Source of the DNA: Methylacidiphilum caldifontis
Lineage (GTDB): Bacteria; Verrucomicrobiota; Verrucomicrobiia; Methylacidiphilales; CAMAQI01
Reading direction: 5' to 3'
Length of the DNA: 64,000 bases
NCBI GenBank assembly: GCA_945877805.1
Contig: CAMCSM010000003.1
Span: 1,295-65,294, forward strand
This document shows positions 5,514-48,635 of the stretch, piece by piece; the first letter of the stretch is position 1, and every line of letters starts with the position of its first letter. The notes under the pieces were generated by a model. That model searched no databases. It saw nothing but the letters and a program-made list of their open reading frames with translations, and was not told the origin of the DNA. The translations under genes were made by a program, and so were the position numbers.

Positions 5514-5720
5514 CCGTCCCGCATATGCGCATGAGGGTCAACTTAAGGACAACAACCAAATACAATTTTCACCGCGGGGTAAACAGAGGGTAACGGAGGA
5601 AAATTCGGTTCTTTTTTTCAAAACAAGCTCAATAAAATAAATCCCAATTTCTCGTTTCCTTATAAAACAGTATTCCCTCCGTTGTCCTCCGTTTACCCCG
5701 CGGTGAAAATTGTATTTTGG
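5514..5720. repeat. Composite intergenic repeat: family C core plus a MITE-like unit with ~28-nt terminal inverted repeats
   Basis: The core ccgtcccgcatatgcgcatgagggtcaacttaagg (5514-5548) recurs at 63611-63643 in reverse complement. Arms 5556-5584 and 5691-5720 are near-perfect inverted repeats around a ~105-nt spacer. Confidence 0.8.
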
Positions 5721-9557: not shown

Positions 9558-10400
9558 TTAACGACTACTATGAAAGATATAATCCATCAGCTCTCTCAGA
9601 TGATCCACGTATCGGCTCATCCATAGATCCCCGCCCATCATCCAAACAATCGCGGCAATCGCAATAAAGGGGCCGTAAGGCATTCGCAATCCCATCGCTC
9701 TTCTTTTTTGAATAATGATCGAAATCCCAATAATCGATCCAAAGACAGAGGATAAACCGAGAACGAAACCGGCTCCCCAAGGGCCGAAAAAAGCCCCAAT
9801 CGCAGCCAGTAACTTCACATCCCCTAATCCCATCGCCTCGCGCCTAAAGACCCAAGTTCCAATTTTTGCGATCAAAAATAAAATAGCCCCTCCAACAAAG
9901 GCCCCTCTCATACTCTCGATAAAACCGTTCCAGCTATTGGATTCGCCGTGAAGTTGTGGGTAAATAAAACTGATCACAAGACCGGCAACACACCCCCCTA
10001 AAGTAAAACGATCAGGAATGATAAAGTAGTCTAAATCGATACAACTGGCGATAATCAACCCAGAGGTGATGAAAGCGTAAATGCAAAAGATCGGAGTCGC
10101 TCCCTGTTGTTGCCAAATCCACCAAAATAAAAAGGCGGTCGTTGCCTCCACCATCCAATAACGAGCATCAATCCGAGTTCCACAACAATGGGCCCGGCCT
10201 TTTAAAAAAAACCAGCCTAAGATCGGAATATTAAACCTCCATGGAATCGCTGAGCCGCAAGAGCCACAATAGGAGGACTTTGAAACAAGATCGACCTCTA
10301 TAGGAATGCGGTAAATACAAACATTTAAAAAGGAGCCGATACAGGCGCCAAATAGAGCAATAAATACCTGAAACAATGGCAGATGAAAATCCATAATCAA
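9558..10400 (-). CDS. pilD: Prepilin peptidase / N-methyltransferase (A24 family)
   Basis: N-terminal Cys cluster CGSCGSAI...CCGTRI. Conserved GLGDVKL aspartyl motif. 7-8 TM helices. Confidence 0.85.
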   Translation of the reverse strand: MIMDFHLPLFQVFIALFGACIGSFLNVCIYRIPIEVDLVSKSSYCGSCGSAIPWRFNIPILGWFFLKGRAHCCGTRIDARYWMVEATTAFLFWWIWQQQGATPIFCIYAFITSGLIIASCIDLDYFIIPDRFTLGGCVAGLVISFIYPQLHGESNSWNGFIESMRGAFVGGAILFLIAKIGTWVFRREAMGLGDVKLLAAIGAFFGPWGAGFVLGLSSVFGSIIGISIIIQKRRAMGLRMPYGPFIAIAAIVWMMGGDLWMSRYVDHLRELMDYIFHSSR

Positions 10401-10404
10401 CTAG

Positions 10405-10592
10405 GAGCAACTGTCCCTATCTAATGGGGAATGGCATAGGGGTAAGCGGATTTTTAAAACATTCAATAGGGAACTCAGGAAAAAAGGAAAAAATAATCCT
10501 GATTTCCTGCTTTCCCCATTAAAATTGTATTTTTCGTAACTATTTGATTGCAAAGTGTTTATATGTTTTAGAAAGTTTACTTCACTAAGAGA
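10405..10592. repeat. Repeat family A, copy A1 (~188 nt, hairpin-forming)
   Basis: Aligns over its full length with 42197-42384 and 45706-45897. Internal inverted repeat ggggtaagcgga...tcctgctttcccc. Confidence 0.85.
10524..10553 (-). promoter_or_regulatory. Sigma70-like promoter candidate carried inside repeat A1
   Basis: Minus strand reads TTGCAA, 18 nt, TACAAT. It points toward the pilD start at 10400. Confidence 0.3.
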
Positions 10593-10603
10593 CCTGCAAT
10601 CCC

Positions 10604-10936
10604 TCAGGCAGATCCAATCGCCAGCCAGGCGACCTCAACCGACCACATTCGAGTATTCAGCCATGTTCTCATTTGGAGTGAAAAACCCTCAGCGGTAATA
10701 TGAGCTGCATTTAAGCTCAACCGTGCATTCCGAGAGTTATCGATATCAAAACCGATGAGGGAAAGTTGGACGATCGGCTTGTCGGAAAATTTCTGATCAA
10801 ACCGAATATAACGCTCGAAAATCCGATCATGATTTTCTGAGGGAACATCGACTAATACCCAATCAGGCTCCTCGACACTTCCTACAATGGTTCCATTTAA
10901 AAATAAAGGCACTTTGCTCTTATCAGACATACTCAC
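10604..10936 (-). CDS. H-type lectin domain protein, no signal peptide
   Basis: FDQKFSDKPIVQLSLIGFDID...ITAEGFSLQMRTWLNTRMWSVEVAWLAIG resembles the H-type lectin fold signature. Confidence 0.5.
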   Translation of the reverse strand: MSMSDKSKVPLFLNGTIVGSVEEPDWVLVDVPSENHDRIFERYIRFDQKFSDKPIVQLSLIGFDIDNSRNARLSLNAAHITAEGFSLQMRTWLNTRMWSVEVAWLAIGSA

Positions 10937-10986
10937 ATCCCCTTTTTATTTAAGTTACCTCAATCAAAAAAATGGTCAAGAAACAA

Positions 10987-11020
10987 CAAAAAAACCCCGA
11001 ATAATTTCGGGGTTTTTTTT
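10987..11020. terminator. Bidirectional intrinsic terminator
   Basis: aaaaaaaa-ccccgaa-taat-ttcgggg-tttttttt. A-run and T-run flank a 7-bp GC-rich stem. Confidence 0.8.
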
Positions 11021-11034
11021 GAGTAAAATTCTTC

Positions 11035-11388
11035 CTAAACAGTCTTTGGAGTTTGACCCGATCCGTCAGACATCGGCATCTGAATACTTCCATTTAAGAT
11101 ACCGCCTTGAGAAACGATGAATCGTGGAGATTTAATATTTCCGTTCACGACCCCCGTCGGTGCAACATCGACTTTATCGCTTGATTCGATCGAACCAGAA
11201 ACTTTTCCTGAAACTTGCACATTCTTTGCAGAAACTTCAGCTTTGACCTCTCCTCCTTGAGAGACAGTCAAATTCTCTTTAATCTTGATCGTTCCTTCGA
11301 CATAACCATCAACAACGATATTCTCGTCGCCAATAACGTCCCCTTTGATTTTAATGGTCTTCCCGATGTAGGTAGGTGTAAGTGACAT
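11035..11388 (-). CDS. Bactofilin (polymer-forming cytoskeletal protein)
   Basis: Repetitive beta-helix pattern IKGDVIGDENIVVDGYVEGTIKIKENLTV...VSGKVSGSI...VNGNI. Confidence 0.8.
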   Translation of the reverse strand: MSLTPTYIGKTIKIKGDVIGDENIVVDGYVEGTIKIKENLTVSQGGEVKAEVSAKNVQVSGKVSGSIESSDKVDVAPTGVVNGNIKSPRFIVSQGGILNGSIQMPMSDGSGQTPKTV

Positions 11389-11471
11389 AGTGTTCTATTT
11401 TTAGCCTCTGTTATGACAATCGTCAACGGCAAAAGCAATTTATCCCTCAATCTTGAAATTCCTCGTAGAAT

Positions 11472-11583
11472 AAAATTGTATTTTTAAAATTTATAAATCG
11501 GAATCCAATGCGATTGATATCGGGGAGAGACTATTTTCATTGAGGAGATATCCTCGGTTTCGGTCTTTGACCGATTTATGTTT
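11472..11583 (-). repeat. Repeat family B, copy B1 (~110 nt, MITE-like)
   Basis: The reverse complement aligns with 27491-27600 and 35476-35575. Terminal inverted repeat cataaatcgg...ccgatttat. Confidence 0.85.
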
Positions 11584-13141
11584 ATTCAAAACTTTTATCT
11601 TTTTTTACTCCGAGCTGGACTGAGCGTTTATAGTGGTACTGACATTTCTCTCCCTCTCCCTCACCAAGCGCTTTTAATGTTTTTGCTAAGGCACGATGCA
11701 GATCTCCAGAATTGGGGTTTTTCGTGAGCCCCTCCTCAAGTGATTTCTTTGATTCCACGTGCCACCCACGATCATATAAAATAATCCCCAAACCGAGATA
11801 GCTCTCTGCAATTTCCGGAGATAAAGCAATGGAAACGATCGCATCATCAATCGCTTCTTCACTCCTTCCCCCTTGACTCTTCACAATAGCGAGGGTCCCG
11901 TAACTGTACCCATCATAGGGAGCGAGCTCGATTGCTTTCTCCAAATGATTAATTGAGTCTTCAAAATTGCCACAAAGATACTCAACACTTCCTAAATTTG
12001 AGAGCAGATAAAGGGAGCTTGAATCTTTCTCATAGAGCGCTTTGTAAATCGAGCGTGCCTCTTGATAGCGGGCAGAATTAAAGGCACTTGAGGCCTTTTT
12101 ACAGGAAATGAGTTCGGCTTTAGGGATCATCGGAATGAGAGAGGGGGAGGGATTGGAATGAGATTGTATCAAATCAATGACCGATTTCCTCAGTTGCTCC
12201 ACACGATGATAAATTAATCGATTCTCATTTTCTAACGATTCTTTGGCAAATTGAAACTCCCCTTCTGACTTATACCTTTGATCGCTCTCTAAAGGTCTCC
12301 AAATCTTCTCCCCCATTACTTTTTCAAATGCATCCGCAGGGACTCCTTGAGGATTCCGTGCAATTTTAACCGCTCTTTCAAGCCCCTCTTGGAGCCGACT
12401 CAAGACACGATATTGAATCTGTTCAAAATCAAACCCTTGAATCCATGAGCTCTCAAAAGGAGCTCTCGGCTTTTCCTCAGCCACCACTTCTTGAACCTCC
12501 ACGGGGGAGGGGGAATTCTCTCCAGATTTATCCACCTTGAGTTCTGGCCCTTTAGCGCTCTCTGAAGGGGTAATCGACAAATCAGGCGGAATCGTTATCG
12601 GCGTTTGAACCTCCCTCTCTTTCCGCTCTCCAAGGAGGTTAACCGTTTCATTTCGCTCTTTTTTAGGACTCACAAAAAGCTCCTTAAAACCCGAAAACTC
12701 CAGAAGAACAATCTCCCCATGAGGAAGCGCCCGGCCATTAACAATAGTCTCCCCTAAATGTCCTGTAATCCCAAAAGTCTTTTTTTGATAGGAATCAAAA
12801 ATAATCGTAAATAAGGAACCTGCGGGCATCTGGATAAAATAACGATCGATAATAAAGTTCAACTCTCTTTTCTGCGCATCATCATTACGAATAAAAATTG
12901 CATGGTCGCCGTGGATATTAAAACCGAAACTTAACAAAAAGGAATAATCAGAGTGATCGACTCGAAGTTTATAAGTCGATCGAGGAACCGTATTTCGAAC
13001 CTCCTGTTCTGGGGAGAAAAAAACAAGATTCCGTTCTCTCAGCAAAATTGTGAAGGCCTCCACAGGACGAGCTAACTCTTCGGATATCACTCCCGTTAAA
13101 AGAAAACTAAGGACAACTAAAATAGAAAGCAAACATTTCAC
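11582..13141 (-). CDS. Secreted TPR-repeat protein
   Basis: N-terminal signal peptide. C-terminal ~170 aa form TPR-like repeats (YKALYEKDSS..., LEKAIELAPYDGYSYGTLAIV...). Confidence 0.6.
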   Translation of the reverse strand: MKCLLSILVVLSFLLTGVISEELARPVEAFTILLRERNLVFFSPEQEVRNTVPRSTYKLRVDHSDYSFLLSFGFNIHGDHAIFIRNDDAQKRELNFIIDRYFIQMPAGSLFTIIFDSYQKKTFGITGHLGETIVNGRALPHGEIVLLEFSGFKELFVSPKKERNETVNLLGERKEREVQTPITIPPDLSITPSESAKGPELKVDKSGENSPSPVEVQEVVAEEKPRAPFESSWIQGFDFEQIQYRVLSRLQEGLERAVKIARNPQGVPADAFEKVMGEKIWRPLESDQRYKSEGEFQFAKESLENENRLIYHRVEQLRKSVIDLIQSHSNPSPSLIPMIPKAELISCKKASSAFNSARYQEARSIYKALYEKDSSSLYLLSNLGSVEYLCGNFEDSINHLEKAIELAPYDGYSYGTLAIVKSQGGRSEEAIDDAIVSIALSPEIAESYLGLGIILYDRGWHVESKKSLEEGLTKNPNSGDLHRALAKTLKALGEGEGEKCQYHYKRSVQLGVKKDKSFE

Positions 13142-25993: not shown

Positions 25994-27492
25994 TGAAAAC
26001 AACAGTCACCATTACCCTCCTCACGCTCCTCATCCTTGCTCCCCTTTCGTGGGGCGAGGAAAAACCGGGATCGAGCGAAATTAATATTATATTCGATGAG
26101 GGGTCCGACAAACCGCGAACGATTGACTTAAGTGCTAAAGTCTCTGAACCGAAAAATGCCTATCGGATCCAAAACATGCCGCTTAACGATTTTGTCATGG
26201 CGATGGCCCAAAAAGGGGGGCTCTCCTATGTGGCTAATCCTAAGGTCACGGGAAGCGTCAGCGGTCGCTTCACTCAAAATTCCCCCTTGGAAATGATCAA
26301 GGTCGCCGCTCGAGCGAACGGGTATGCGGTTCAAGAAAATAGCACCAATATCGAGCTCTTTAATGCCGATACCCTTGCGGCGCTTCCGCAGCAGGTTTAT
26401 ACACGACAGTTGAAGTATCTACGAGTTCCAGGAAAACCGGAAGATCAACAAAAGAAAATGCAGGAGCTTTTTAAAGGCTTTCTCTCCTCCGATCGCTCTC
26501 AGATTCAATTTGACTCAAAGACGAATACCCTTGTCGTACGGGATGTCGATTCCAACATCAACATCCTCGATTCGATGATTAATAAACTCGATGTCGATCG
26601 TCCGAATGTTCTCGTACGCGTCACGGCCGTTGAGGTCGACGCGAATCCTCGACGAATGTACGGAATCGATTGGCAAAACACCTTTGGAGAGTCTGGTCTG
26701 GATCTTTCGGCGACGACCGTCAACTCCCTCGCCTCGCTTCTGACGACGCAATTTGTTGCCACAACAGCGACTTCGGCACTACCGACTCACCCTGACTACG
26801 CTCTTGTGCTCCAACCGGGACAAGTGAAAGGAGTCCTCCGAGCCCTTGAAAAAAAGGGGCTTGCTGAGATTCGAGCTCAATTCTTTGTTTCAACAGAGGA
26901 TAACGAATTAGGAATGACAACGGTTGCACGACAAGAGCCGATCCCGACCTTTAGCGCGAACCAACAGACCGGAGGATTTGATATCACTGGATTTCAATAC
27001 AAACCGATTGGAGCAACGCTTCAGGTCACCCCGCAATTACTTCCGGATAACATCGTCCGACTTGCGATCAAACCGTCACTTAGCTCCTCTAATCAAACCA
27101 GAACCTTTACCTCAAATAACGGTGGGTTTACCGCCTCGGTTCCGATAATTGAAGAGCGCTCTACAGAGGTCACTGTGCGAGTTCCGTTAAATAAATCGCT
27201 GCTTCTCGGAGGCCTGCAGCAACTCTTTGGAACGGATCAATCCAATAAAGTCCCGATCCTCGGAGATATCCCGGTTCTTAAATTCTTTTTTTCGAGTCGC
27301 GATTATGAAAAAAGAACCCGCAATCTCATCCTCGTTGTCGAGCCGGGAACCCTTGATCCGCAAAACCCTGAAAATCTTCAAGAGGAAATTAATAAGATTA
27401 AGGATCAGATGAAATTTCAGCCCAAAGACTTTAATAAACCGATCTCTGATCTTTCTGCAAAAGCCTCCGATTTTAGTCCCTTTGCGCGATAA
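25993..27492 (+). CDS. Secretin (PilQ/GspD family)
   Basis: Signal peptide. C-terminal LLLGGLQQLF...NKVPILGDIPVLKFFF secretin motif. Confidence 0.85.
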   Translation: MKTTVTITLLTLLILAPLSWGEEKPGSSEINIIFDEGSDKPRTIDLSAKVSEPKNAYRIQNMPLNDFVMAMAQKGGLSYVANPKVTGSVSGRFTQNSPLEMIKVAARANGYAVQENSTNIELFNADTLAALPQQVYTRQLKYLRVPGKPEDQQKKMQELFKGFLSSDRSQIQFDSKTNTLVVRDVDSNINILDSMINKLDVDRPNVLVRVTAVEVDANPRRMYGIDWQNTFGESGLDLSATTVNSLASLLTTQFVATTATSALPTHPDYALVLQPGQVKGVLRALEKKGLAEIRAQFFVSTEDNELGMTTVARQEPIPTFSANQQTGGFDITGFQYKPIGATLQVTPQLLPDNIVRLAIKPSLSSSNQTRTFTSNNGGFTASVPIIEERSTEVTVRVPLNKSLLLGGLQQLFGTDQSNKVPILGDIPVLKFFFSSRDYEKRTRNLILVVEPGTLDPQNPENLQEEINKIKDQMKFQPKDFNKPISDLSAKASDFSPFAR

Positions 27493-27600
27493 CATAAATC
27501 GGTCAAAGACCGAAACCAAGGATATCTCCTCAATGAAAATATTCTCTATCCCATTCAAGTCCCATTGAATTCCGATTTATGAATTTTAAAATACAGTTTC
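27491..27600 (+). repeat. Repeat family B, copy B2
   Basis: aacataaatcggtcaaagaccgaaaccaaggatatctcctcaatgaaaat...cattgaattccgatttatgaattttaaaatacag. Confidence 0.85.
27565..27592 (+). promoter_or_regulatory. Sigma70-like promoter candidate inside repeat B2
   Basis: TTGAAT (27565-27570), 16 nt, TAAAAT (27587-27592). About 40 nt upstream of the ATG at 27632. Confidence 0.35.
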
Positions 27601-35433: not shown

Positions 35434-35475
35434 CTCAAGATTTATGAATTCAAAATCCCTCCATGGCAAACTATT

Positions 35476-35575
35476 AAACATAAATCGGTTAAAGACCGAA
35501 ACCAAGGATATCTCCTCAATAAAATATTCTCTACCCCGTTCCAGTCGCATTGAATTCCGATTTGTGAATAAGATC
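35476..35575 (+). repeat. Repeat family B, copy B3
   Basis: aacataaatcggttaaagaccgaaaccaaggatatctcctcaataaaat...cattgaattccgatttgtgaat. A B 3'-end fragment also lies at 35440-35457. Confidence 0.85.
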
Positions 35576-40708: not shown

Positions 40709-41844
40709 TGATTCTGATTCTTAATCAATTCCCGGAAAAAGACCCTGCCCCGACGAGTCGCTATTTAAAAGAGTGGGGAGAAGATCTTCGTCAACAGGGA
40801 GAATCGATACAATGGATCTCCGGAACTCCCTCCTATAGGCTCCGAAGCCCCCTCTTTATTTTCAGGGCTCTCCAAGATCTGCAAACCGTGTTTCTCATTT
40901 TATGGGAGGGAATTTGGTCCCCCACTCCCCATCTGATCATTGCCAGTAGCTCCCCTCCCGGAATTCTTCTCGTCGCAACCGTTTTAAAGCTCTGGCATCG
41001 CGTCCCCTTGATCCACTGGGCGATGGATCTTCATCCCGATCTCTCCGAAGCTCTTGGAGAAAATAAGTTCTTACGAGGAATCTTCCAGTTTTTCGTGAAG
41101 CGATGCTATCCGCTCTGCGATGTTCTCTTGACGTTGGATGCCGACATGCAAAAAAAACTTCGAACCACTTACCAGGTCGATTCGATCATCACTCGCTTAT
41201 GGCCTCTGAATCTGGCTGCAATTCCGGACTCCCGATCGGTTCAATCCCCCCCTCGCTGGATTTATTCCGGAAATTTAGGCAAGGCTCATGAATGGAAAAC
41301 GGTTTTAGAAACACAATCGAGGCTCGAACAACAGGGCTCCCCGTTTCAGTTACGACTGCAAGGCAATGCCTCTCAACGACTCCCCTCCAACCTCTCTCTT
41401 CCGCAACAGATCGAGCTCTCTGATTACGTCGCTGAAGAAAACCTCGTATCCACCCTACTCTCCTGCCATCTTTTGATTGCGACTCAAAATCCATTGACCA
41501 CAGGACTTCTTTGGCCCTGTAAACTGGCACTGCTTTCGGTGCTCCCTCGACCGCTTCTTTGGATTGGATCGAAAAACTCTTCGACCGCTACAGAATTCAA
41601 GCAACGTCCCCATACCGGAATCTTTGAGCCGGGGGAAAGCGAAAAAATCGCTCAATGGATAAAACAGTACGAAACGATTCCGAACCAAAATGATTTTAAA
41701 AAATGGATCGAGAAACAGCCGACTCAATCGGCTTTTCTTGAGCAAGTCCGAAAAGTAACTTTGCCTCTGAGGCCAAAAGCGGCATCACGGAAAGACGAGA
41801 CTGACGAATCAGCGGGATCTCTTTTAAAAGAGGATGAGATTTAA
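40708..41844 (+). CDS. Glycosyltransferase, GT-B (GT4/WbuB-like)
   Basis: N-terminal MILILNQFPEKDPAPTSRYLKEWGEDL. TGATG coupling to wcaF-like. The C-terminal ~50 aa lie antisense to the EVE gene. Confidence 0.5.
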   Translation: MILILNQFPEKDPAPTSRYLKEWGEDLRQQGESIQWISGTPSYRLRSPLFIFRALQDLQTVFLILWEGIWSPTPHLIIASSSPPGILLVATVLKLWHRVPLIHWAMDLHPDLSEALGENKFLRGIFQFFVKRCYPLCDVLLTLDADMQKKLRTTYQVDSIITRLWPLNLAAIPDSRSVQSPPRWIYSGNLGKAHEWKTVLETQSRLEQQGSPFQLRLQGNASQRLPSNLSLPQQIELSDYVAEENLVSTLLSCHLLIATQNPLTTGLLWPCKLALLSVLPRPLLWIGSKNSSTATEFKQRPHTGIFEPGESEKIAQWIKQYETIPNQNDFKKWIEKQPTQSAFLEQVRKVTLPLRPKAASRKDETDESAGSLLKEDEI

Positions 41845-42139
41845 TCATCTCTAAAGTCACCGGAACTTTAAAAGAACGGACCGGCTTGATCTCCACACAG
41901 CTCCAATCCCCCTCCTCCGCCGTTTTATCAGCAAAGGCCTCTTTGCTAATCTGAGCGATTCCGACGACCGATTTCTCGGTCACGCTATGGTAGAGAAAAA
42001 CAAGATCCCCTTTTTTCATCGCTCGAAGGTGATTCCGAGCCTGATAATTGCGTACCCCAGTCCAATCGGTTTTTCCCTCCCGAATCAGGTCACTCATGGA
42101 GTAGGCCTCAGGCTCCGATTTAACTAACCAATAACTCAT
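41696..42139 (-). CDS. EVE (PUA-like) domain protein
   Basis: MSYWLVKSEPEAYSMSDL...WTGVRNYQARNHLRAMKKGDLVFLYHS. Start moved to 42139. Confidence 0.8.
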   Translation of the reverse strand: MSYWLVKSEPEAYSMSDLIREGKTDWTGVRNYQARNHLRAMKKGDLVFLYHSVTEKSVVGIAQISKEAFADKTAEEGDWSCVEIKPVRSFKVPVTLEMIKSHPLLKEIPLIRQSRLSVMPLLASEAKLLFGLAQEKPIESAVSRSIF

Positions 42140-42196
42140 CTTTGATGCCTTTGATCCTGAATGGTGAAATTGAGATAAGTATTCTTTTTCACGCGA

Positions 42197-42384
42197 AGCA
42201 ACTGTCCCCATGGAATGGGGAATGGCACAGTTGTGAAGCGGATTTTTAAAACATTCAATAGGGAACTCAGGAAAAAAGGAAAAAAATAATCCTGCTTTCC
42301 TGCTTTCCTTATTAAATTGAATTTTTTCATAATCTCTTGGACGATAGATGTTTATATATTTTAGGAAGTTTACTTCACTAGGAG
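42197..42384. repeat. Repeat family A, copy A2
   Basis: Near full-length alignment with 10405-10592. Confidence 0.85.
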
Positions 42385-42388
42385 CGAA

Positions 42389-43351
42389 TTAAGATCCGAC
42401 TTCCTTGCGAGCCTCTTCAGCGAGCGCGGTACTTAAATAGCGTTCTCCCGTGCTACAGGCGATGGTAACAATCAATTTCCCCTTATTCTCAGGACGTTTC
42501 GCAACCTCAAGGGCGGCCACGACATTGGCACCCGTAGAAATTCCGACTAAAAGACCCTCCTCTTTGGCCAGCCGACGGGCCATCGCAAAAGCATCATCAT
42601 TACTTACGGTGATCACATCATCAACGATCGCAAGGTTTAAATTCTTAGGAACGAATCCTGCACCTGTCCCTTGTATTTTATGAGGTCCTGGCTTCACTGG
42701 CTCCCCATTGCGAGTTTGGGTAATGACCGGGGAGTCCTTCGGTTCGACGGCAATCGACTGGAAGCTCGGCTTACGTGCCTTACAGACCTCAGAAACTCCC
42801 GTAATCGTTCCCCCTGTTCCTACTGAGGCGACAAAAATATCGATTTTCCCATCGGTATCACGCCAGATCTCCTCTGCCGTTGTCTTACGATGAATCTCTG
42901 GATTCGCTGGATTTTCAAACTGTTGCGGGATAAAAGAACCAGGAATCTCAAGTTGAAGAGCGACGGCTTTATTGATCGCCCCACGCATTCCTTCTGCGGC
43001 AGGGGTCAAAACGAGTTTCGCCCCTAACATCGCTAAAAGCGTCCGACGTTCCAAGCTCATGCTCTCAGGCATCGTAAGGATTAATTTATACCCTTTAGCG
43101 GCAGCCACAAAGGCCAAGGCGATTCCGGTATTGCCAGAGGTCGGTTCAATCAAAGTAGTATTTGCTGTAATCAAACCGGCCTTTTCAGCCGATTCAATCA
43201 TCGCCATTCCGATTCGATCTTTAACACTTCCGAGCGGATTGAAAAATTCACATTTCAAAGCGATCGTTGCATCGATCCCAGCGGTAATTCGATTCAATTT
43301 TACCAAGGGGGTATTTCCGATGGTTCCAACGACATTGTGAATAAGGGGCAT
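42389..43351 (-). CDS. cysK: Cysteine synthase A (O-acetylserine sulfhydrylase)
   Basis: [36 protein letters not shown]. Confidence 0.9.
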
Positions 43352-43421: not shown

Positions 43422-43910
43422 CTATTCCGAAGGGAGATCCGTCCCGGTTTTTCCCCATTTTTCGAGGCAATAATCCAAAGAGATCTTCCCTGGTCCAAAA
43501 AAGAGGATAACAAGGGTCACAATCAGATAGGTCGAGGGAGTCGCACTTAAAAACTCCGAAGGATCAGAAAAAAATTGCAGGAGTTTTTCATGGTCGGCGG
43601 TGTAATAAGCAACCATCATGGTAAAAGCGAGAGGGAGACTAACCACTCTTGAAAATAACCCTAAAATTAAAAACAATCCGCCGAAGCATTCAACAGAGGC
43701 CGCAACCAAGGCATTCATCTGGGGAAAGGGGATATTTAAACCGGTAAAAAATTCCGTGACTTGATCAAGATTTTTTAATTTCCCATATCCAGTGACCATA
43801 AAGAGCCAGCCCCAATAGAGCCTCAGTCCCAATAAAAAGGGGGTCTGAAATAAATTCATGAGTTTATTACACAAAGAGACAGCGGAGAGATAATTCATCT
43901 TGATATTCAT
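43422..43910 (-). CDS. DoxX family membrane protein, last gene of the MNIO cluster
   Basis: LLGLRLYWGWLFMVTGYGKL...ECFGGLFLILGLFSR. Start moved to 43910 to remove the overlap. Confidence 0.75.
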   Translation of the reverse strand: MNIKMNYLSAVSLCNKLMNLFQTPFLLGLRLYWGWLFMVTGYGKLKNLDQVTEFFTGLNIPFPQMNALVAASVECFGGLFLILGLFSRVVSLPLAFTMMVAYYTADHEKLLQFFSDPSEFLSATPSTYLIVTLVILFFGPGKISLDYCLEKWGKTGTDLPSE

Positions 43911-43935
43911 ATTTTTAGATTCACTTGTTTTAGAT

Positions 43936-44814
43936 TCATTTTTTTGATTTTCGTAGAGAGATCCACCCCATCGCCGACCACTCTTGAAACTGGGTTTGCA
44001 CGGAGGCGGCACTCACCGCATCCTTAAATTTATTTTGCTTCATTACTTTTTCAATCGCTGCACCAAGGGAAATTCCTTGATCAAATGCGGTGAGAAGTTC
44101 AAAAGCCCATGGCTCGATTCGTTTAAAATAGACTTTAAATTGATAGCGATGAACGGCTAAATAGATCCTCTCTTTTTTAATCGCTCCGACGAGAGCACGG
44201 CATTTCGACTTTAAACGACGATCTAAAACACCGTTACTCAACTGCTCACGTACCCCCCCTTGATTCAGCTTCAACTGCCATTCATCCAACGGATAATCGA
44301 GTGCCATCAGTCGAACATGGGGAGAGATTCTCAATCGACAAAGGAGGGGGCGAGCCCCCAAATGTTTTGCCGTCAGGGGAGATTCCTCTTTTTCATCATA
44401 AACATGAAGTTGAGCGAGCTCCATCGTCGCCATCTGATAGAAAAGAGCGCTTTTATCCTTGTAGGCTCTCTTTTCTTTGAGAATAAAAGGGGGCAAACGG
44501 GTTCCAAAATCACGTAGGGTATAAGATCGTGAGGGAAATTTCTCGATGTAACGACGAATCAGTCGTTCAAATTCCTGATCCCCCATGAGGGCTCTTAATC
44601 CAGGGAAATCATCATACAATGACTCTAAAATCCGAAACCAATACTGTCGGGCATAAATTTCAATTCGATCGACTGCCGTAAGACGTGAATTCGGTTTGAT
44701 TTCCGATTTTATCCATCGACCGCCGATTCGACTCGGTTGAAGCCGATCTTTTGAGTTTAAAGGGGCTTGAAGGCAGCTTAAGAAATCCTTTTGAAGTTGC
44801 GCAAGAGAGCTCAT
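43936..44814 (-). CDS. DUF2063 family protein (BufC/HvfC-like MNIO partner)
   Basis: IEIYARQYWFRILESLYDDFPGLRALMGDQEFERLIRRYIEKFPS. 4-nt overlap with the DUF692 gene. Confidence 0.75.
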   Translation of the reverse strand: MSSLAQLQKDFLSCLQAPLNSKDRLQPSRIGGRWIKSEIKPNSRLTAVDRIEIYARQYWFRILESLYDDFPGLRALMGDQEFERLIRRYIEKFPSRSYTLRDFGTRLPPFILKEKRAYKDKSALFYQMATMELAQLHVYDEKEESPLTAKHLGARPLLCRLRISPHVRLMALDYPLDEWQLKLNQGGVREQLSNGVLDRRLKSKCRALVGAIKKERIYLAVHRYQFKVYFKRIEPWAFELLTAFDQGISLGAAIEKVMKQNKFKDAVSAASVQTQFQEWSAMGWISLRKSKK

Positions 44815-45680
44815 TTTTTAGCCCTCTTTTTTTTCTGAGCCGCTTTGTCTTTATCTTTCCAATAGCGAGTCGCTTTCTTTGCTTCATCATGAACCTCTTG
44901 AAAAGAGGGGATACTGGCATCCCACTCCAAAAGGGTTGCGGTAGGCCCCACCTTTTGAATCGCTAAGTCATAAAGTTCCCAGACCGGATCAATCACGGGG
45001 TGGTCATGGGTATCAATAATAAATCGTTCATATTTCGAATGACCTGCGATATGCATTTGAGCCACGCGATGATGGGGAACCCCTAAAATATAATCTCGGG
45101 GATCAAAGGTATGATTCTGGGAGGAAACATAAATATTATTTACGTCGAGAAGGATCCCACAGTCGGCCCGTTCGACGACCTCTGTCAAAAACTCCCATTC
45201 CGTCATCTCTGAGGAATGAAATTCGGCGTAGCTACTCACATTCTCGACGGCAATGGGGATCTCTAAATAATCACGAACTTCACGAATTTTCTTCGCCGCA
45301 TTTTTCGCCGCATCTAATGTGTACGGAAGCGGGAGTAAATCATGAGAATAGGTTCCATCGACACTTCCCCAACATAAATGATCGGAGAGCCATGGAGTCT
45401 TCGTGCGTTTGACTAAATCTTTCAGTTTTTTTAGATGAGTTCGATTGAGTCGTTCTTTGGAGCCAAAATAAAGGGAGACCCCATGTTGAACGACTTGATA
45501 TTGCTCTAAAATTTGATCGAGGATATGCAGTGCCCGTCCCCCCTCCTGCATATAATTTTCTGAAATAATCTCGAACCAATCAACGGTCGGTTTTTCCGTC
45601 AAAATATGATCGTAATGAGGGACTCTCAATCCGATTCCAATCCCATAATTCGTGAAATTATTAAAGCGATTTGCAGGCAT
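44811..45680 (-). CDS. DUF692 / MbnB-family multinuclear non-heme iron oxidative enzyme (MNIO)
   Basis: GIGLRVPHY...VDWFEIISENYM...HGVSLYFGS...PWLSDHLCW...VENVSSY...LLDVNNIYVS...MHIAGH...IDTHDHPV...LEWD. Confidence 0.9.
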   Translation of the reverse strand: MPANRFNNFTNYGIGIGLRVPHYDHILTEKPTVDWFEIISENYMQEGGRALHILDQILEQYQVVQHGVSLYFGSKERLNRTHLKKLKDLVKRTKTPWLSDHLCWGSVDGTYSHDLLPLPYTLDAAKNAAKKIREVRDYLEIPIAVENVSSYAEFHSSEMTEWEFLTEVVERADCGILLDVNNIYVSSQNHTFDPRDYILGVPHHRVAQMHIAGHSKYERFIIDTHDHPVIDPVWELYDLAIQKVGPTATLLEWDASIPSFQEVHDEAKKATRYWKDKDKAAQKKKRAKK

Positions 45681-45705
45681 AATGAGTCAGAGAAAATAAA
45701 ACAAA

Positions 45706-45897
45706 TCTCTTAGGAATGCTGGAAGGCAGGAATTTAAAAACATTTTAAATAGGGAAATCAGGAAAAAAGGAATTAAAACAAAAAATTCGGCGGTCTTTTT
45801 CCTATTTTCCTGCTTTCCCCATTAAAACTGTATTTTTCATAACGACCTTATTACAAGATATTCATATATCTTTCGGAAGTTTGCTTCACTAAGAGAG
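45706..45897. repeat. Repeat family A, copy A3, lying between the precursor and MNIO genes
   Basis: tctcttaggaatgctggaaggcaggaattt...ttttcctgctttccccattaaaactgtatttttcat...cttcactaagagag. Confidence 0.85.
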
Positions 45898-45968
45898 CAC
45901 TGAGTTTTTCTTAAGGGAACTTTCCGATTATAAGTCGGAAAGCTCCCTTTTGATCTTAAACTAAATAA

Positions 45969-46244
45969 TTATTTCTTTTCCTTCTTTGCGGGACATCCAT
46001 CTTTACCGCTACAAGAGGCCTTTTCTTTGCTCTCTTTATCTTTTTTACCCTTGCAGCCATCTTTACCACTGCATTTATCTTTTTCCTTCTTTGCAGGGCA
46101 GCCATCCTTACCAGAACAAGTGGCCTTTTCTTCAGCTAAAACAGCGCTCGCAAGAACACCTGCGTTTGCGGCTTGGAGTGAGGTTCCTGTCAAAATTCCA
46201 GCAACTGCGGCTGCTGCGATCATCGTGCGTGTAACTTTAGTCAT
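45969..46244 (-). CDS. Secreted Cys-repeat peptide, candidate RiPP precursor (bufferin/HvfA-like position)
   Basis: Sec signal MTKVTRTMIAAAAVAGILTGTSLQAANA. Core has 3x CSGKDGC separated by Lys-rich linkers. aagga RBS 8 nt upstream of the ATG. Confidence 0.7.
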   Translation of the reverse strand: MTKVTRTMIAAAAVAGILTGTSLQAANAGVLASAVLAEEKATCSGKDGCPAKKEKDKCSGKDGCKGKKDKESKEKASCSGKDGCPAKKEKK

Positions 46245-46326
46245 TGTTTTATCCTTTTTTTTTATTTTTTTGTTTTGAAGCGATCGGAAATTCCGAACAG
46301 CTATTATTAAGAGTCCCAGAAAAAAA

Positions 46327-46342
46327 GTTTATTCCCAGAAAT
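46327..46342 (-). promoter_or_regulatory. Candidate ECF-type promoter element upstream of the precursor gene
   Basis: Minus strand reads ATTTCTGGGAATAAAC, then 13 nt, then CTCTTA. The same GGGAATAAAC 10-mer recurs upstream of the sigma gene. Confidence 0.4.
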
Positions 46343-47094
46343 TAAAATAATTTTTTAAGCTCATCGAGCGTCACTCCTCCCGTCAAGATATACCCGTGAC
46401 TTTCATCAGTCCAACTGGCCACCGCATTCCCTTGTCTCTCGTGAAAATCAGGAACTCCAAAGGAGGGAAGATTTTGCAGATCGGCTTTATCGATGACAAA
46501 AAGATGAACCTCTTTTTTAACTCCTTCGATCTGAAAACAGATCATCGAGGAGCGAATTCCAAAAAATTCGACCTGACGACAGCCAAATTGAGAGAGTCCC
46601 TCCACATGAAAGGGGATCTGGAATGAATGGGGAGTCCCACGGCTCTTGAGCCACTCCCGCGCTTCACTTAATTGGGGGGTTTTCTTCGAAAGCATGAAAA
46701 CGCTCTGAGTGAAATCAACGGCTCTCCCCTCGAATTGAGCAAAGTCATTCGATTTCGAGTTCTCCCAGAAGGAGAAGGTCGTCAAACTCAAAATCAGCAG
46801 CGCAGCGGCCGCTAACGGAATCCATAAATAGCGAGGGAATGAAATGATCTTCGCCGATTTCTGCTGCTGCTCTTGATTTTGAGCTAAAATCTTCCGTTTA
46901 AGATCCTCAGGAATCGAAATTGAATGGATCGATTTTTTAATTTTTGAATCCCACTGATATTGCTGCTCCCAAACCCTTTTCAAGGAGGGATCACGCTCCA
47001 TCTCCGCAAAGGCGGCCTCAATCTGTGGATCCCCCTCCCCCTCTTGAGGCGAGCGAACAGACAAGAGGATCTCTAAGATTTGCTCTCTTTTCAT
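46342..47094 (-). CDS. Single-pass anti-sigma factor
   Basis: ATGA overlap with the ECF sigma gene. Cytoplasmic N-terminus, TM helix LWIPLAAAALLILSLTTFSFW, periplasmic C-terminal domain. Confidence 0.6.
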   Translation of the reverse strand: MKREQILEILLSVRSPQEGEGDPQIEAAFAEMERDPSLKRVWEQQYQWDSKIKKSIHSISIPEDLKRKILAQNQEQQQKSAKIISFPRYLWIPLAAAALLILSLTTFSFWENSKSNDFAQFEGRAVDFTQSVFMLSKKTPQLSEAREWLKSRGTPHSFQIPFHVEGLSQFGCRQVEFFGIRSSMICFQIEGVKKEVHLFVIDKADLQNLPSFGVPDFHERQGNAVASWTDESHGYILTGGVTLDELKKLF

Positions 47095-47606
47095 GCTCTT
47101 ACCTCCGCAAAATATTTTTCTAATCGTTTCCTCATGATTCCCTTCCCTCGTGCGAGACGGGACATCACGGTTCCGATCGGAATCTCTAAAATATCGGCGA
47201 TTTCTTTATAAGATAGATCCTCCAAATAAAAGAGGGTCAACGGCTCACGATAAACAAGATCGAGCCCCTTTAAAACCTCGACCACCTTCTCTCCATCCAT
47301 CTCTAAAGGGACCGGTGGGGCCTCATCGGCTAACTCAATCGTCATCTCCTCGAAACTTTCGCTGGGATGATTTTTCTCCCGTCGTCTCGACCGGAGAAAC
47401 TCCCGATAGAGAGTCGTAAAGAGCCAAGTCTTGACCTTGGAGGGATCGCGCAATTGATCCCCTTTGCTCGCCCAGATAAAAAAGGTTTGCTGAGTCAAAT
47501 CGGAGGCATCCGCCTCGCTGCCGGAGAGGCTGATACCAAAACGAAAAAGGGATGAATAATAGGTCTCGACCACGACTTCAAACTCCATTGGGTGATTGTT
47601 ATTCAT
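47091..47606 (-). CDS. ECF (group IV) sigma-70 factor
   Basis: Region 2 DASDLTQQTFFIWA...WLFTTLYREFL. Region 4 LSYKEIADILEIPIGTVMSRLARGK. Confidence 0.85.
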   Translation of the reverse strand: MNNNHPMEFEVVVETYYSSLFRFGISLSGSEADASDLTQQTFFIWASKGDQLRDPSKVKTWLFTTLYREFLRSRRREKNHPSESFEEMTIELADEAPPVPLEMDGEKVVEVLKGLDLVYREPLTLFYLEDLSYKEIADILEIPIGTVMSRLARGKGIMRKRLEKYFAEVRA

Positions 47607-47625
47607 GTGAGACAGAAGGACTTTG

Positions 47626-47640
47626 GTTTATTCCCGAAAT
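47626..47640 (-). promoter_or_regulatory. Candidate autoregulatory ECF promoter element
   Basis: Minus strand reads ATTTCGGGAATAAAC, then 14 nt, then CTCAC, directly before the annotated ATG at 47606. Confidence 0.35.
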
Positions 47641-48151: not shown

Positions 48152-48388
48152 ATGCCTGAAATTTTTCGAAAAGAAGGGTTTGTCGTTAGTTTTTATTCTG
48201 GGGATGGGCACGAGCCGATCCATGTTCATGTTCGTAAAGCGGGGGGAGAGGCAAAGATTTGGGTCGAGCCTATCCAAGTTGAATATGGCAAACGAATGGA
48301 ATGGCAGGACTTAAAAAGAGCAGAAGAGCTGGTCGCAGAAAATATCGATCTTATCAAAATGAGGTGGCATGAATACTTTGGAAGTTGA
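48152..48388 (+). CDS. DUF4160 family protein
   Basis: FYSGDGHEPIHVHVRKAGGEAKIWVEP signature. Confidence 0.8.
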   Translation: MPEIFRKEGFVVSFYSGDGHEPIHVHVRKAGGEAKIWVEPIQVEYGKRMEWQDLKRAEELVAENIDLIKMRWHEYFGS

Positions 48389-48635
48389 TTTGGATTTATT
48401 AGAGCCTATAAAGGTTCGTTACGACAATGGATCGATTATCATCACCTTAAGTGATGGACGCGAAGTCACCTTTCCGTGTGCGGTGAACGAATATCTCTCC
48501 GTAGCCACCGAAGCAGAAATTTCAAAAATGGAAATTTCTCCCTGCGGTATTCATTGGCCTCTTCTCAACGAAGATTTATCGATCAAAGGTATTTTAGAGG
48601 GACGCTTTGGACGTACTCCACGATCGCCTAAATAA
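48369..48635 (+). CDS. DUF2442 family protein
   Basis: IIITLSDGREVTFP...ISPCGIHWPLLNEDLSIKGILEG. 20-nt overlap with the DUF4160 gene. Confidence 0.8.
   Translation: MNTLEVDLDLLEPIKVRYDNGSIIITLSDGREVTFPCAVNEYLSVATEAEISKMEISPCGIHWPLLNEDLSIKGILEGRFGRTPRSPK

Follow-up and report, generated by a model that had tools for sequence, protein, structure and literature searches.

Organization of the cluster

The subject of this report is a cluster of six genes on the minus strand of a 64,000-nucleotide stretch of DNA from a Verrucomicrobiota bacterium (the window, by which we mean the whole stretch analyzed), in which a small exported Cys-rich protein is encoded next to a putative peptide-modifying enzyme. 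[quoted passage not shown] Its domain labels were confirmed by Pfam and NCBIfam (Sigma70_r2/r4, MbnB_TglH_ChrH, DUF2063 and DoxX), and the two 4-nt ATGA start/stop overlaps that it reported, at 47091-47094 between the sigma and anti-sigma genes and at 44811-44814 between the MNIO and DUF2063 genes, can be read directly in the sequence. The host had been taken for a member of the Planctomycetes-Verrucomicrobia-Chlamydiae (PVC) group, and its nearest relatives are in fact Verrucomicrobiota metagenome-assembled genomes (MAGs). The DoxX gene was correctly identified and placed. The GTG at 44012 would give a 77-nt overlap with the DUF2063 gene, and the internal ATG at 43910, which yields a protein of 162 aa as in the relatives, is the most likely initiation codon.

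Table 1. Genes and non-coding features of the cluster, in the direction of transcription (positions in the window).
Feature	Position	Strand	Evidence
ECF-type promoter-like motif 5' of the sigma gene (GGAATAAAC-N12-GTCT)	47610..47634	-	Motif count; conservation in L001, L002 and L004
ECF (group IV) sigma factor	47091..47606	-	Pfam Sigma70_r2 and Sigma70_r4_2; TIGR02937
Single-pass anti-sigma factor	46342..47094	-	ATGA overlap; weak DUF3379/anti-sigma matches; alignment; AF2 model
ECF-type promoter-like motif, second copy, 5' of the precursor gene (GGAATAAAC-N13-CTCT)	46310..46335	-	Motif count; relatives
Precursor peptide, 91 aa, 3x CSGKDGC	45969..46244	-	Sequence; homologues; adjacency to the MNIO gene
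Perfect 15-bp hairpin, candidate attenuator or mRNA-stabilizing element	45913..45949	-	Folding; loci of relatives
Copy of the ~190-nt intergenic hairpin repeat (MITE/REP-like)	45727..45894	.	Three copies in the window; fold z = -5.4
MNIO (DUF692) peptide maturase, BufB type	44811..45680	-	PF05114; MNIO_BufB; PDB 3BWW
DUF2063-type partner (BufC / PME1)	43936..44814	-	PF09836; AF2 and Foldseek
DoxX-family inner-membrane protein (BufD/HvfX-like)	43422..43910	-	Pfam DoxX; NF050144
MITE, miniature inverted-repeat transposable element; REP, repetitive extragenic palindrome; AF2, AlphaFold2. Related loci are designated by L numbers.

The MNIO, its partner and the DoxX protein

The MNIO matched PF05114 (MbnB_TglH_ChrH) at 3e-108 and scored 350.3 bits on the NCBIfam model MNIO_BufB (NF050167), above its cut-off of 310, which agrees with the predicted DUF692 enzyme of the bufferin kind. 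The cut-off of the HvfB model was not reached (265 bits against 360), and neither were those of the NCBIfam models for ApyH, ChrH and MbnB (36 bits on the last). The protein aligns to the structure of the H. somni MNIO (PDB 3BWW, 1e-47) and has all the metal-ligand motifs (HG, DH, EN, DVNN, HIAGH, DTH and EWD). When placed in a phylogeny, as had been proposed, its nearest MNIOs proved to be Buf2-associated. An exact look-up gave no record for either the MNIO or the precursor; the closest relative is the enzyme of L003, with 99% identity. In a neighbor-joining tree, built without bootstrap and with a very distant outgroup, the MNIOs associated with CSGKDGC precursors fall into two deep branches, both at the base of the Buf2 clade as sampled, a basal placement that is tentative; the enzyme appears to track the precursor type only weakly.

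D254 is the catalytic Asp, and the substrate-specificity position next to it is occupied by A255 (LLEWDA). The residue after the catalytic Asp is Phe in "Lys-Cys" enzymes and Asp in "Cys-Lys" enzymes, and has been predicted to touch the Lys of the substrate (PMC13097082). An Ala at this position is found in the window enzyme and in those of L001, L003 and L004, but also in seven Buf2-type enzymes of the PVC group, while L007 keeps the Asp. The Asp-to-Ala change was considered as a clean signature of cassette-type substrates and rejected, since, although present in 4 of the 5 CSGKDGC-type enzymes, it comes from two lineages only and is confounded with phylogeny.

The partner protein matched Pfam DUF2063 (PF09836) at 9e-17, with a weak additional match to NGO1945_C, and the NCBIfam HvfC model at 4e-13, where its 49.7 bits fall short of the cut-off of 142. 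A search of the PDB by sequence gave no match. The AF2 model (pLDDT 90.4, based on 58 homologues) displays an N-terminal helical DUF2063 domain and a C-terminal alpha/beta domain resembling a recognition element (RRE) of peptides made by the ribosome and modified after translation (RiPPs). The only significant Foldseek matches of this model (E < 1e-3) were TglI (8HI7, 8HCI) and NGO1945/NgoC (3DEE, TM-score 0.70 on the target), and their fold bears out the predicted identity of the partner. The modeled structure is that of the DUF2063-plus-RRE "PME1" architecture, which defines captophorin clusters (PMC13097082). The partners evolve faster than the MNIOs everywhere. At 75-80% MNIO identity, pairs of a cassette-associated and a Buf2-associated partner are 35% identical and Buf2-Buf2 pairs 45%, an extra divergence that is modest and not common to both CSGKDGC subgroups. 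The DoxX protein matched Pfam DoxX at 2e-21 and is a borderline member of the HvfX family NF050144 (81.6 bits, cut-off 80).

The precursor peptide

The precursor of 91 aa contains three exact copies of CSGKDGC, at residues 43-49, 58-64 and 78-84. Its six Cys residues are spaced by 5, 8, 5, 13 and 5 positions and form no Cx5Cx5C triad. The N-terminus has the features of a Sec-type signal peptide, with K3 and R6 in the n-region, a hydrophobic core and a cleavage site, read from the sequence, between MTKVTRTMIAAAAVAGILTGTSLQAANA and G, i.e. after A-N-A; the mature peptide would comprise 63 aa, with 29% Lys and a net charge of +7. The Ser codons differ among the three units (TCT, AGT and AGC, thus from both Ser codon families), and this use of different synonymous codons argues against a recent duplication of the DNA and for a repetition maintained at the protein level, with selection acting on the peptide. 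The predicted signal-peptidase site and the first cassette are separated by a conserved hydrophobic segment, GVLASAVLAEEK (residues 30-41; 46033-46157, minus strand), which is replaced by a different conserved segment, VAGQxADGSTxTL, in other precursor subgroups. We regard GVLASAVLAEEK as a candidate recognition sequence for the RRE domain of the partner.

In the profile searches against DUF692, DUF2063, DoxX, DUF2282 and the BufA1, BufA2 and HvfA models, the MNIO, the partner and the DoxX protein were matched and the precursor matched none. It has no Pfam or NCBIfam family match, for DUF2282 at E-values up to 10, and the models of the HvfA type, NF050188 and NF050137 (EGKCG and KCGExKCG repeats), did not detect it either. 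The DUF2282, BufA2 and HvfA models all recognized positive controls: HvfA scored 1.6e-37 and 7e-26 on its two models, and the BufA2 model detected a canonical six-Cys precursor from Acidobacteriota at 7e-11, although with 42 bits, under its cut-off of 60. The description of the precursor as a small, exported, Lys-rich Cys-repeat protein that is not of the DUF2282 type consequently stands.

A word-indexed search returned 12 close homologues, one of them annotated as belonging to a Verrucomicrobiota MAG. Their signal peptides are homologous, and the number of C[SG]GK[DE]GC[PK][AG]KK cassettes ranges from 2 to 4. On every contig examined the precursor gene lies directly upstream of the MNIO gene, and the DUF2063 gene follows wherever the contig extends so far; among the loci with CSGKDGC-type or related cassettes, the sole exception to the precursor-MNIO-partner order is L009, whose contig is cut inside the MNIO-like gene. 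DoxX genes occur on some of these contigs and, over the related loci as a whole, in most.

Relation to the Buf2 precursors

A scan of species-representative genomes yielded 80 MNIO loci with 72-79% identity to the window enzyme, mostly from Acidobacteriota, together with Verrucomicrobiota and some Planctomycetota. In almost all of them the gene directly upstream encodes a signal-peptide protein ending in ...KHACKGQNSCKGKGGCKSSDNGCKGKNSCKGKGGC..., i.e. a precursor of the Buf2 type (BUF_6/12Cys, or "Cys-Lys"). The Buf2 unit CKGKGGC and the window unit CSGKDGC differ at two positions and have the Cx5C spacing in common, and several loci stand between the two. An Opitutales precursor (L053) carries four copies of CKGKDGC, exactly intermediate between both units, and in Opitutaceae EW11 (L064) one CSGKDGC unit precedes a canonical Buf2 core; the latter hybrid is detected by the BufA2 model at 1.4e-8, and further hybrids are P0044, P0056 and P0070. 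Signal peptides can be aligned across cassette, intermediate, hybrid and Buf2-type loci.

An exhaustive search with a precursor profile against 1.84 billion representatives gave 361 matches at E-values up to 1e-3, which form a continuum. Of the 160 precursors that were listed, roughly 34 carry isolated C[SK]GKDGC pairs without any triad; some 35, with at least two triads, are canonical Buf2 precursors, and the remainder are intermediates and hybrids. An MNIO linkage is likewise seen for P0028 and P0022, two distant members of the cassette type, whose regulators are different. The continuum and the linkage of these distant members argue that the window peptide is a rearranged three-cassette relative of the Buf2 precursors, a recurring architectural variant in a Buf2-like continuum and not an isolated invention. 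Judged as a BufA2-family member, it has the homologous signal peptide and Cys unit and an enzyme of the Buf2 branch; it has neither an NF050166 match nor the six- or twelve-Cys triads. The novelty attributed to the precursor by the original prediction is accordingly reduced: no described precursor model matches it, but intermediates join it to the Buf2 family and it is not an unprecedented type. What appears to be new, judging from its sequence, is the layout of three isolated Cx5C pairs with Lys-rich spacers, which is oxazolin-like and yet Buf2-derived. As a separate observation, in several Acidobacteriota loci (L022, L028 and L033) two Buf2-type precursor genes are found in tandem upstream of the MNIO gene, as also reported in the published survey.

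The sigma/anti-sigma pair and a candidate promoter motif

The sigma factor matched Sigma70_r2 (5e-10) and Sigma70_r4_2 (5e-14) and reached 64.3 bits on TIGR02937 (sigma70-ECF; cut-off 42.9). Together with the overlapping gene for a membrane anti-sigma factor and a predicted promoter motif upstream of its own gene, the presence of regions 2 and 4 only is what is found in an ECF sigma/anti-sigma pair. Orthologues of the sigma factor adjoin the cluster in L001-L006, L025, L037 and L064; the complete pair lies upstream in L001-L006, and its homologues accompany the cluster in Verrucomicrobiota loci only. Alignment and model divide the anti-sigma factor into an N-terminal cytoplasmic helical domain, a single transmembrane helix at about residues 88-109 and a beta-rich periplasmic domain of about 135 aa. 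Weak DUF3379/anti-sigma-like matches cover the N-terminal part only. All six homologues detected keep C172, C186, H197 and H233 unchanged in the periplasmic domain, and the AF2 model (pLDDT 58) gave sub-threshold Foldseek matches to RseB/MucB, which are a hint only. Judging from the alignment, this is a narrow and unannotated anti-sigma family with invariant periplasmic Cys and His residues.

The string GGAATAAAC occurs twice in the window. The motif GGAATAAA-N12-14-(G/C)TCT was found exactly twice in the 64 kb, against 0.13 occurrences expected, and 0 of 100 shuffled sequences reached two; one site lies just upstream of the sigma gene, the other just upstream of the precursor gene. The same motif precedes both genes in L001, L002 and the GC-rich L004, and the precursor gene in L003, L005, L007 and L009, the last two of which have no adjacent sigma gene; in L037 it is located upstream of a Buf2-type precursor. 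This pair of motifs has the form expected of an autoregulated ECF promoter and a target promoter. A scan for generic sigma-70 promoters and terminators returned nothing above background. The start codon of the sigma gene is uncertain, since only 3 nt separate the end of the predicted -10 element from the ATG at 47606 (47604-47634, minus strand): the sigma mRNA may be leaderless, or translation may begin at a codon further downstream, and in L002 the gene caller chose a GTG 14 codons further in.

Hairpins and repeats

The perfect 15-bp hairpin begins 20 nt 3' of the precursor stop codon. Of the 13 loci folded, which cover both precursor types, all but L001 have a strong hairpin directly after the precursor gene (12 loci); the structure is conserved and the sequence is not, and several of these hairpins are followed by T-runs. 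Its position and conservation fit attenuation or a stabilization of the transcript that favors the precursor.

The structured repeat of about 190 nt that the original prediction had noticed between the precursor and enzyme genes is real. It has copies in the same orientation at 10406-10591, 42197-42384 and 45727-45894, each between co-directional genes of the minus strand; it contains a long internal inverted repeat and folds far better than shuffled sequence (z = -5.4). No Rfam family corresponds to it; the only matches were sub-threshold ones to plant miRNA precursors, which are generic for long hairpins. In the spacer between precursor and MNIO genes the repeat is seen in L002 and L003, which are the closest relatives, but not in L001, L004 or L007 (spacers of 56-281 nt); it is probably a lineage-specific intergenic mobile or REP-like element, incidental to the system. 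The window also contains a second repeat family of about 100 nt with 88-96% identity (11482-11584, 27491-27591 and 35475-35569), one copy of which is inverted relative to the other two, and a 45-nt inverted repeat, 5558-5602 / 5673-5717, which is 91% complementary over a 70-nt spacer.

Neighboring genes

Downstream of the DoxX gene, at a distance of 70 nt, lies a gene for a pyridoxal phosphate-dependent enzyme (Pfam PALP; 42389-43351, minus strand), which we take to be cysteine-synthase/CysK-like, followed by a gene for an EVE-domain protein (41696-42211, minus strand). A link between these genes and the Cys-rich peptide seems unlikely, because their adjacency is not conserved in the relatives. 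On the other side, the cluster is separated from pheS by two overlapping genes, DUF4160 and DUF2442 (1.8e-16 and 6.8e-14; 48152-48635, plus strand), which resemble a small toxin-antitoxin-like module; in the relative L002 the interval from pheS to the sigma gene contains no called gene. In L007 the MNIO cluster adjoins a reverse transcriptase and a bAvd gene (10207-11668), hallmarks of a diversity-generating retroelement, which is probably coincidental.

Discussion

In our view the locus is probably a Verrucomicrobiota operon for a RiPP metallophore of the bufferin/captophorin type, which encodes a Buf2-derived cassette peptide and is controlled by an ECF sigma factor. The gene architecture of periplasmic RiPP metallophores of the bufferin kind, as originally predicted, is present: a BufB-type MNIO, a DUF2063-RRE partner, a DoxX protein that passes the HvfX model and an exported Cys-rich peptide encoded upstream. 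The characterized bufferins bind copper, have Cys residues converted to 5-thiooxazoles and are expressed under the control of an ECF sigma factor, SigF (PMC11626156); in oxazolin, each modified Cys pair binds one Cu(I) (PMC11252979), and the captophorin class has been defined in PMC13097082. By analogy with Buf1, Buf2, oxazolin and fontiphorin, the MNIO-partner complex would oxidize the Cys residues of the cassettes to 5-thiooxazoles in the cytoplasm, with a mass change of -4 Da each and up to -24 Da, and with an absorbance maximum at ~305 nm. The peptide would then be exported by Sec and cleaved after ANA, and in the periplasm each pair of heterocycles would chelate one copper, up to three per peptide, and so buffer metal stress. 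The conserved motifs suggest that the adjacent sigma factor drives expression from the GGAATAAA-N12-14-(G/C)TCT promoters of its own gene and of the precursor gene, that the single-pass anti-sigma factor holds the sigma factor with its periplasmic Cys2/His2 domain as the likely signal receiver, and that more precursor than enzyme is made, in a high ratio that is probably set by the hairpin following the precursor gene.

Several observations weigh against parts of this interpretation. The window peptide does not match the BufA2 profile NF050166 even at E-values up to 10. Most of its Cys residues are followed by Ser or Pro instead of Lys; Pro occurs after the second Cys in 2 of the 3 cassettes, and a nearly invariant Pro follows the last Cys in the alignment. 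For FonB, which belongs to another branch of these enzymes, Pro was not tolerated at any position of the substrate (PMC13097082), and therefore the set of modified Cys residues is not fixed by homology. In addition, the outer Cys residues of Buf1 and Buf2 form a disulfide instead of heterocycles. With regard to regulation, the anti-sigma factor is unrelated to NrsF, as it has no PF06532 (DUF1109) match and a single transmembrane helix in place of a polytopic domain; the AF2 model of the protein is poor, and its putative Cys/His cluster comes from the alignment. The hairpin of the window has no U-tract and is thus no canonical terminator. Finally, DoxX is dispensable in Caulobacter (PMC11626156).

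The most serious competitor, to which we give a sizeable chance although below an even one, is that the cluster encodes an ordinary divergent bufferin of the BufA2 family, with the same chemistry and copper buffering, the cassette layout being neutral drift of a low-complexity peptide. The enzyme, 72-79% identical to Buf2-associated MNIOs and passing the BufB model, would agree with this, as would the Cx5C unit common to both, the continuum of intermediates and the fact that even canonical Acidobacteriota precursors stay under the BufA2 cut-off (42 against 60 bits). Drift, however, fits less well with a peptide that lacks any BufA2 match and any Cx5Cx5C triad when the canonical and hybrid forms are still detected at 7e-11 and 1e-8. 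Moreover, the cassette form occurs in about 34 of the 160 listed representatives, in several lineages, linked to an MNIO and kept by purifying selection, and the partners are about 10 points more diverged than those of Buf2-Buf2 pairs at equal MNIO divergence. It is very improbable, in our judgment, that the small protein is instead a periplasmic Cys/Lys-rich metal or redox buffer acting through free thiols or disulfides, un- or marginally modified, with the MNIO having another substrate or being merely co-regulated. The Cx5C pairs could form disulfide loops, Pro after Cys in 2 of the 3 cassettes would be compatible with a lack of modification, and the modification itself is here argued by analogy; against this, precursor, MNIO and partner genes are strictly adjacent over independent loci and three phyla, including loci without common regulators, the cluster ORFs include no other Cys-rich candidate, and the homologous Buf2 peptides are modified (PMC11626156).

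An alternative that leaves the modification in place concerns the metal. The system might respond to Au, Cd, Zn or Hg, to oxidative or hypochlorite stress, or to envelope stress in general, as could be suggested by an anti-sigma factor that differs from the copper-responsive NrsF, by the weak resemblance of its periplasmic domain to the envelope-stress sensors RseB/MucB and by the thioredoxin/AhpC-type genes adjoining the cluster in L007. MNIO-partner clusters have also been tied to oxidative and metal stress (PMC13097082), and roles beyond copper have been predicted (PMC12452194). Nevertheless, we find a non-copper function unlikely: all characterized relatives with paired thiooxazoles bind copper, Buf1 and Buf2 are induced by Cu and not by Fe, Zn or Mn (PMC11626156, PMC11252979, PMC12538549), and the structural hint comes from a low-confidence model.

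Beyond the copper-buffering operon that we favor, a bolder hypothesis may be put forward, which we hold to be rather doubtful. The CSGKDGC-cassette peptides would constitute a functionally distinct bufferin subclass, arisen from Buf2 triads that were broken into isolated Cx5C cassettes and converging on the design of oxazolin, with one copper per cassette, all six Cys residues modified and a disordered Lys-rich chain. In Verrucomicrobiota this subclass would go together with an ECF sigma/anti-sigma pair not described before, and the periplasmic Cys2His2 domain of that pair would sense the metal directly. If true, subclass and pair would make up a self-contained sense-and-buffer module, and the GGAATAAA-N-(G/C)TCT promoter would mark a wider regulon.

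Regarding novelty, the original prediction of an undescribed variant of a recently recognized system holds for the cassette precursor and the ECF module inside the cluster, but the class, the bins into which such precursors fall and Verrucomicrobiota clusters had already been published. A total of 33 Verrucomicrobiota and 11 Chlamydiota MNIO-partner clusters have been counted (PMC13097082, Tables S2 and S3), bins for "other repeat" and unclassified signal-peptide Cys precursors exist (PMC13097082; PMC12452194), and oxazolin, fontiphorin and bulbicupramide already provide examples of di-Cys cassettes repeated between Lys-rich spacers. A full-text literature search found no paper naming the motif GKDGC, SGKDG or CSGKD, which is likewise absent from the accessible part of the supplement text of both surveys, weak evidence given that this text is partial. 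The locus brings together an ECF module inside the cluster and a cassette precursor that is Buf2-derived and oxazolin-like, and is no new kind of system. Bufferins/captophorins are among the largest RiPP classes and their experimentally characterized examples are proteobacterial only; in agreement with the original prediction, no characterized member from the PVC group was found in the literature. The locus is a compact case of a highly conserved enzyme (about 78% identical) accepting reorganized Cys layouts and different Cys-flanking residues, which bears on Cys selectivity. The series from Buf2 triads through CKGKDGC repeats to CSGKDGC cassettes, with its hybrids, suggests how repeat-type metallophores arise, and the candidate promoter and sensor pair bear on how non-proteobacterial soil bacteria turn such systems on. 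It is therefore a worthwhile case of substrate scope and regulation, although unsurprising to specialists.

Comparison with known systems

In one of the described systems, methanobactin (MbnABC), an MNIO likewise acts on the Cys residues of a ribosomal peptide to give copper-binding heterocycles, but the enzyme is distant (36 bits on the MbnB model), the partner MbnC is different, the product carries oxazolone-thioamide groups, and the peptide has no Sec signal and is secreted as a chalkophore with dedicated transport. Bufferin 1 (BufA1-D1, DUF2282; SigF-NrsF), a periplasmic copper buffer, has in common with the window the MNIO, DUF2063 and DoxX genes and an ECF sigma factor with a membrane anti-sigma factor; its precursor, however, is a folded DUF2282 domain with 4 Cys, and NrsF is a polytopic DUF1109 protein, unlike the single-pass anti-sigma factor found here. 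The "CxxxxC" and unclassified signal-peptide precursors of Antoine et al. 2025 (PMC12452194) are also Cys-motif precursors encoded upstream of MNIOs of the bufferin mega-cluster. The "CxxxxC" family is set apart by its Cx4C spacing, in contrast to the Cx5C of the window, and the window cluster lacks a Lactamase_B_2 gene; the authors also mention hundreds of further small ORFs with 1-18 Cys, among which the window peptide would fall.

The closest system is Bufferin 2 (BufA2B2C2; BUF_6/12Cys; "Cys-Lys"), found in Caulobacter vibrioides and many Acidobacteriota and Verrucomicrobiota, with which the window has in common a BufB-type MNIO, a DUF2063-RRE partner, a homologous Sec signal peptide, the C-x-G-K-x-G-C unit with Cx5C spacing, six Cys residues and the gene order A-B-C(-DoxX). 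In contrast to Bufferin 2, the window peptide, unseen by the BufA2 hidden Markov model, has three isolated pairs separated by Lys-rich spacers of 8-13 residues in place of Cx5Cx5C triads, with Ser or Pro after most Cys. Its MNIO has Ala instead of Asp after the catalytic Asp, as do some Buf2 enzymes of the PVC group, and the sigma/anti-sigma genes are part of the cluster; in the survey, sigma genes accompanied Buf1 clusters and not Buf2 clusters. In its overall design the peptide agrees with oxazolin (HvfABCX), fontiphorin, gonophorin and bulbicupramide (the "Lys-Cys", EGKCG group), which are likewise exported, Lys-rich and probably disordered, carry repeated di-Cys cassettes (three in HvfA and MmrA), are encoded with MNIO, DUF2063 and DoxX genes and bind one Cu(I) per modified Cys pair, bulbicupramide being possibly retained. 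Their cassettes, however, are KCGEGKCG with Cx4C spacing; the HvfA and KCGExKCG models miss the window peptide, and the window enzyme, under the HvfB cut-off, is without the Arg-Arg and Phe specificity residues (LLERDF in theirs, LLEWDA in the window). The resemblance to oxazolin is one of convergent design, the two enzymes belonging to different branches of the family.

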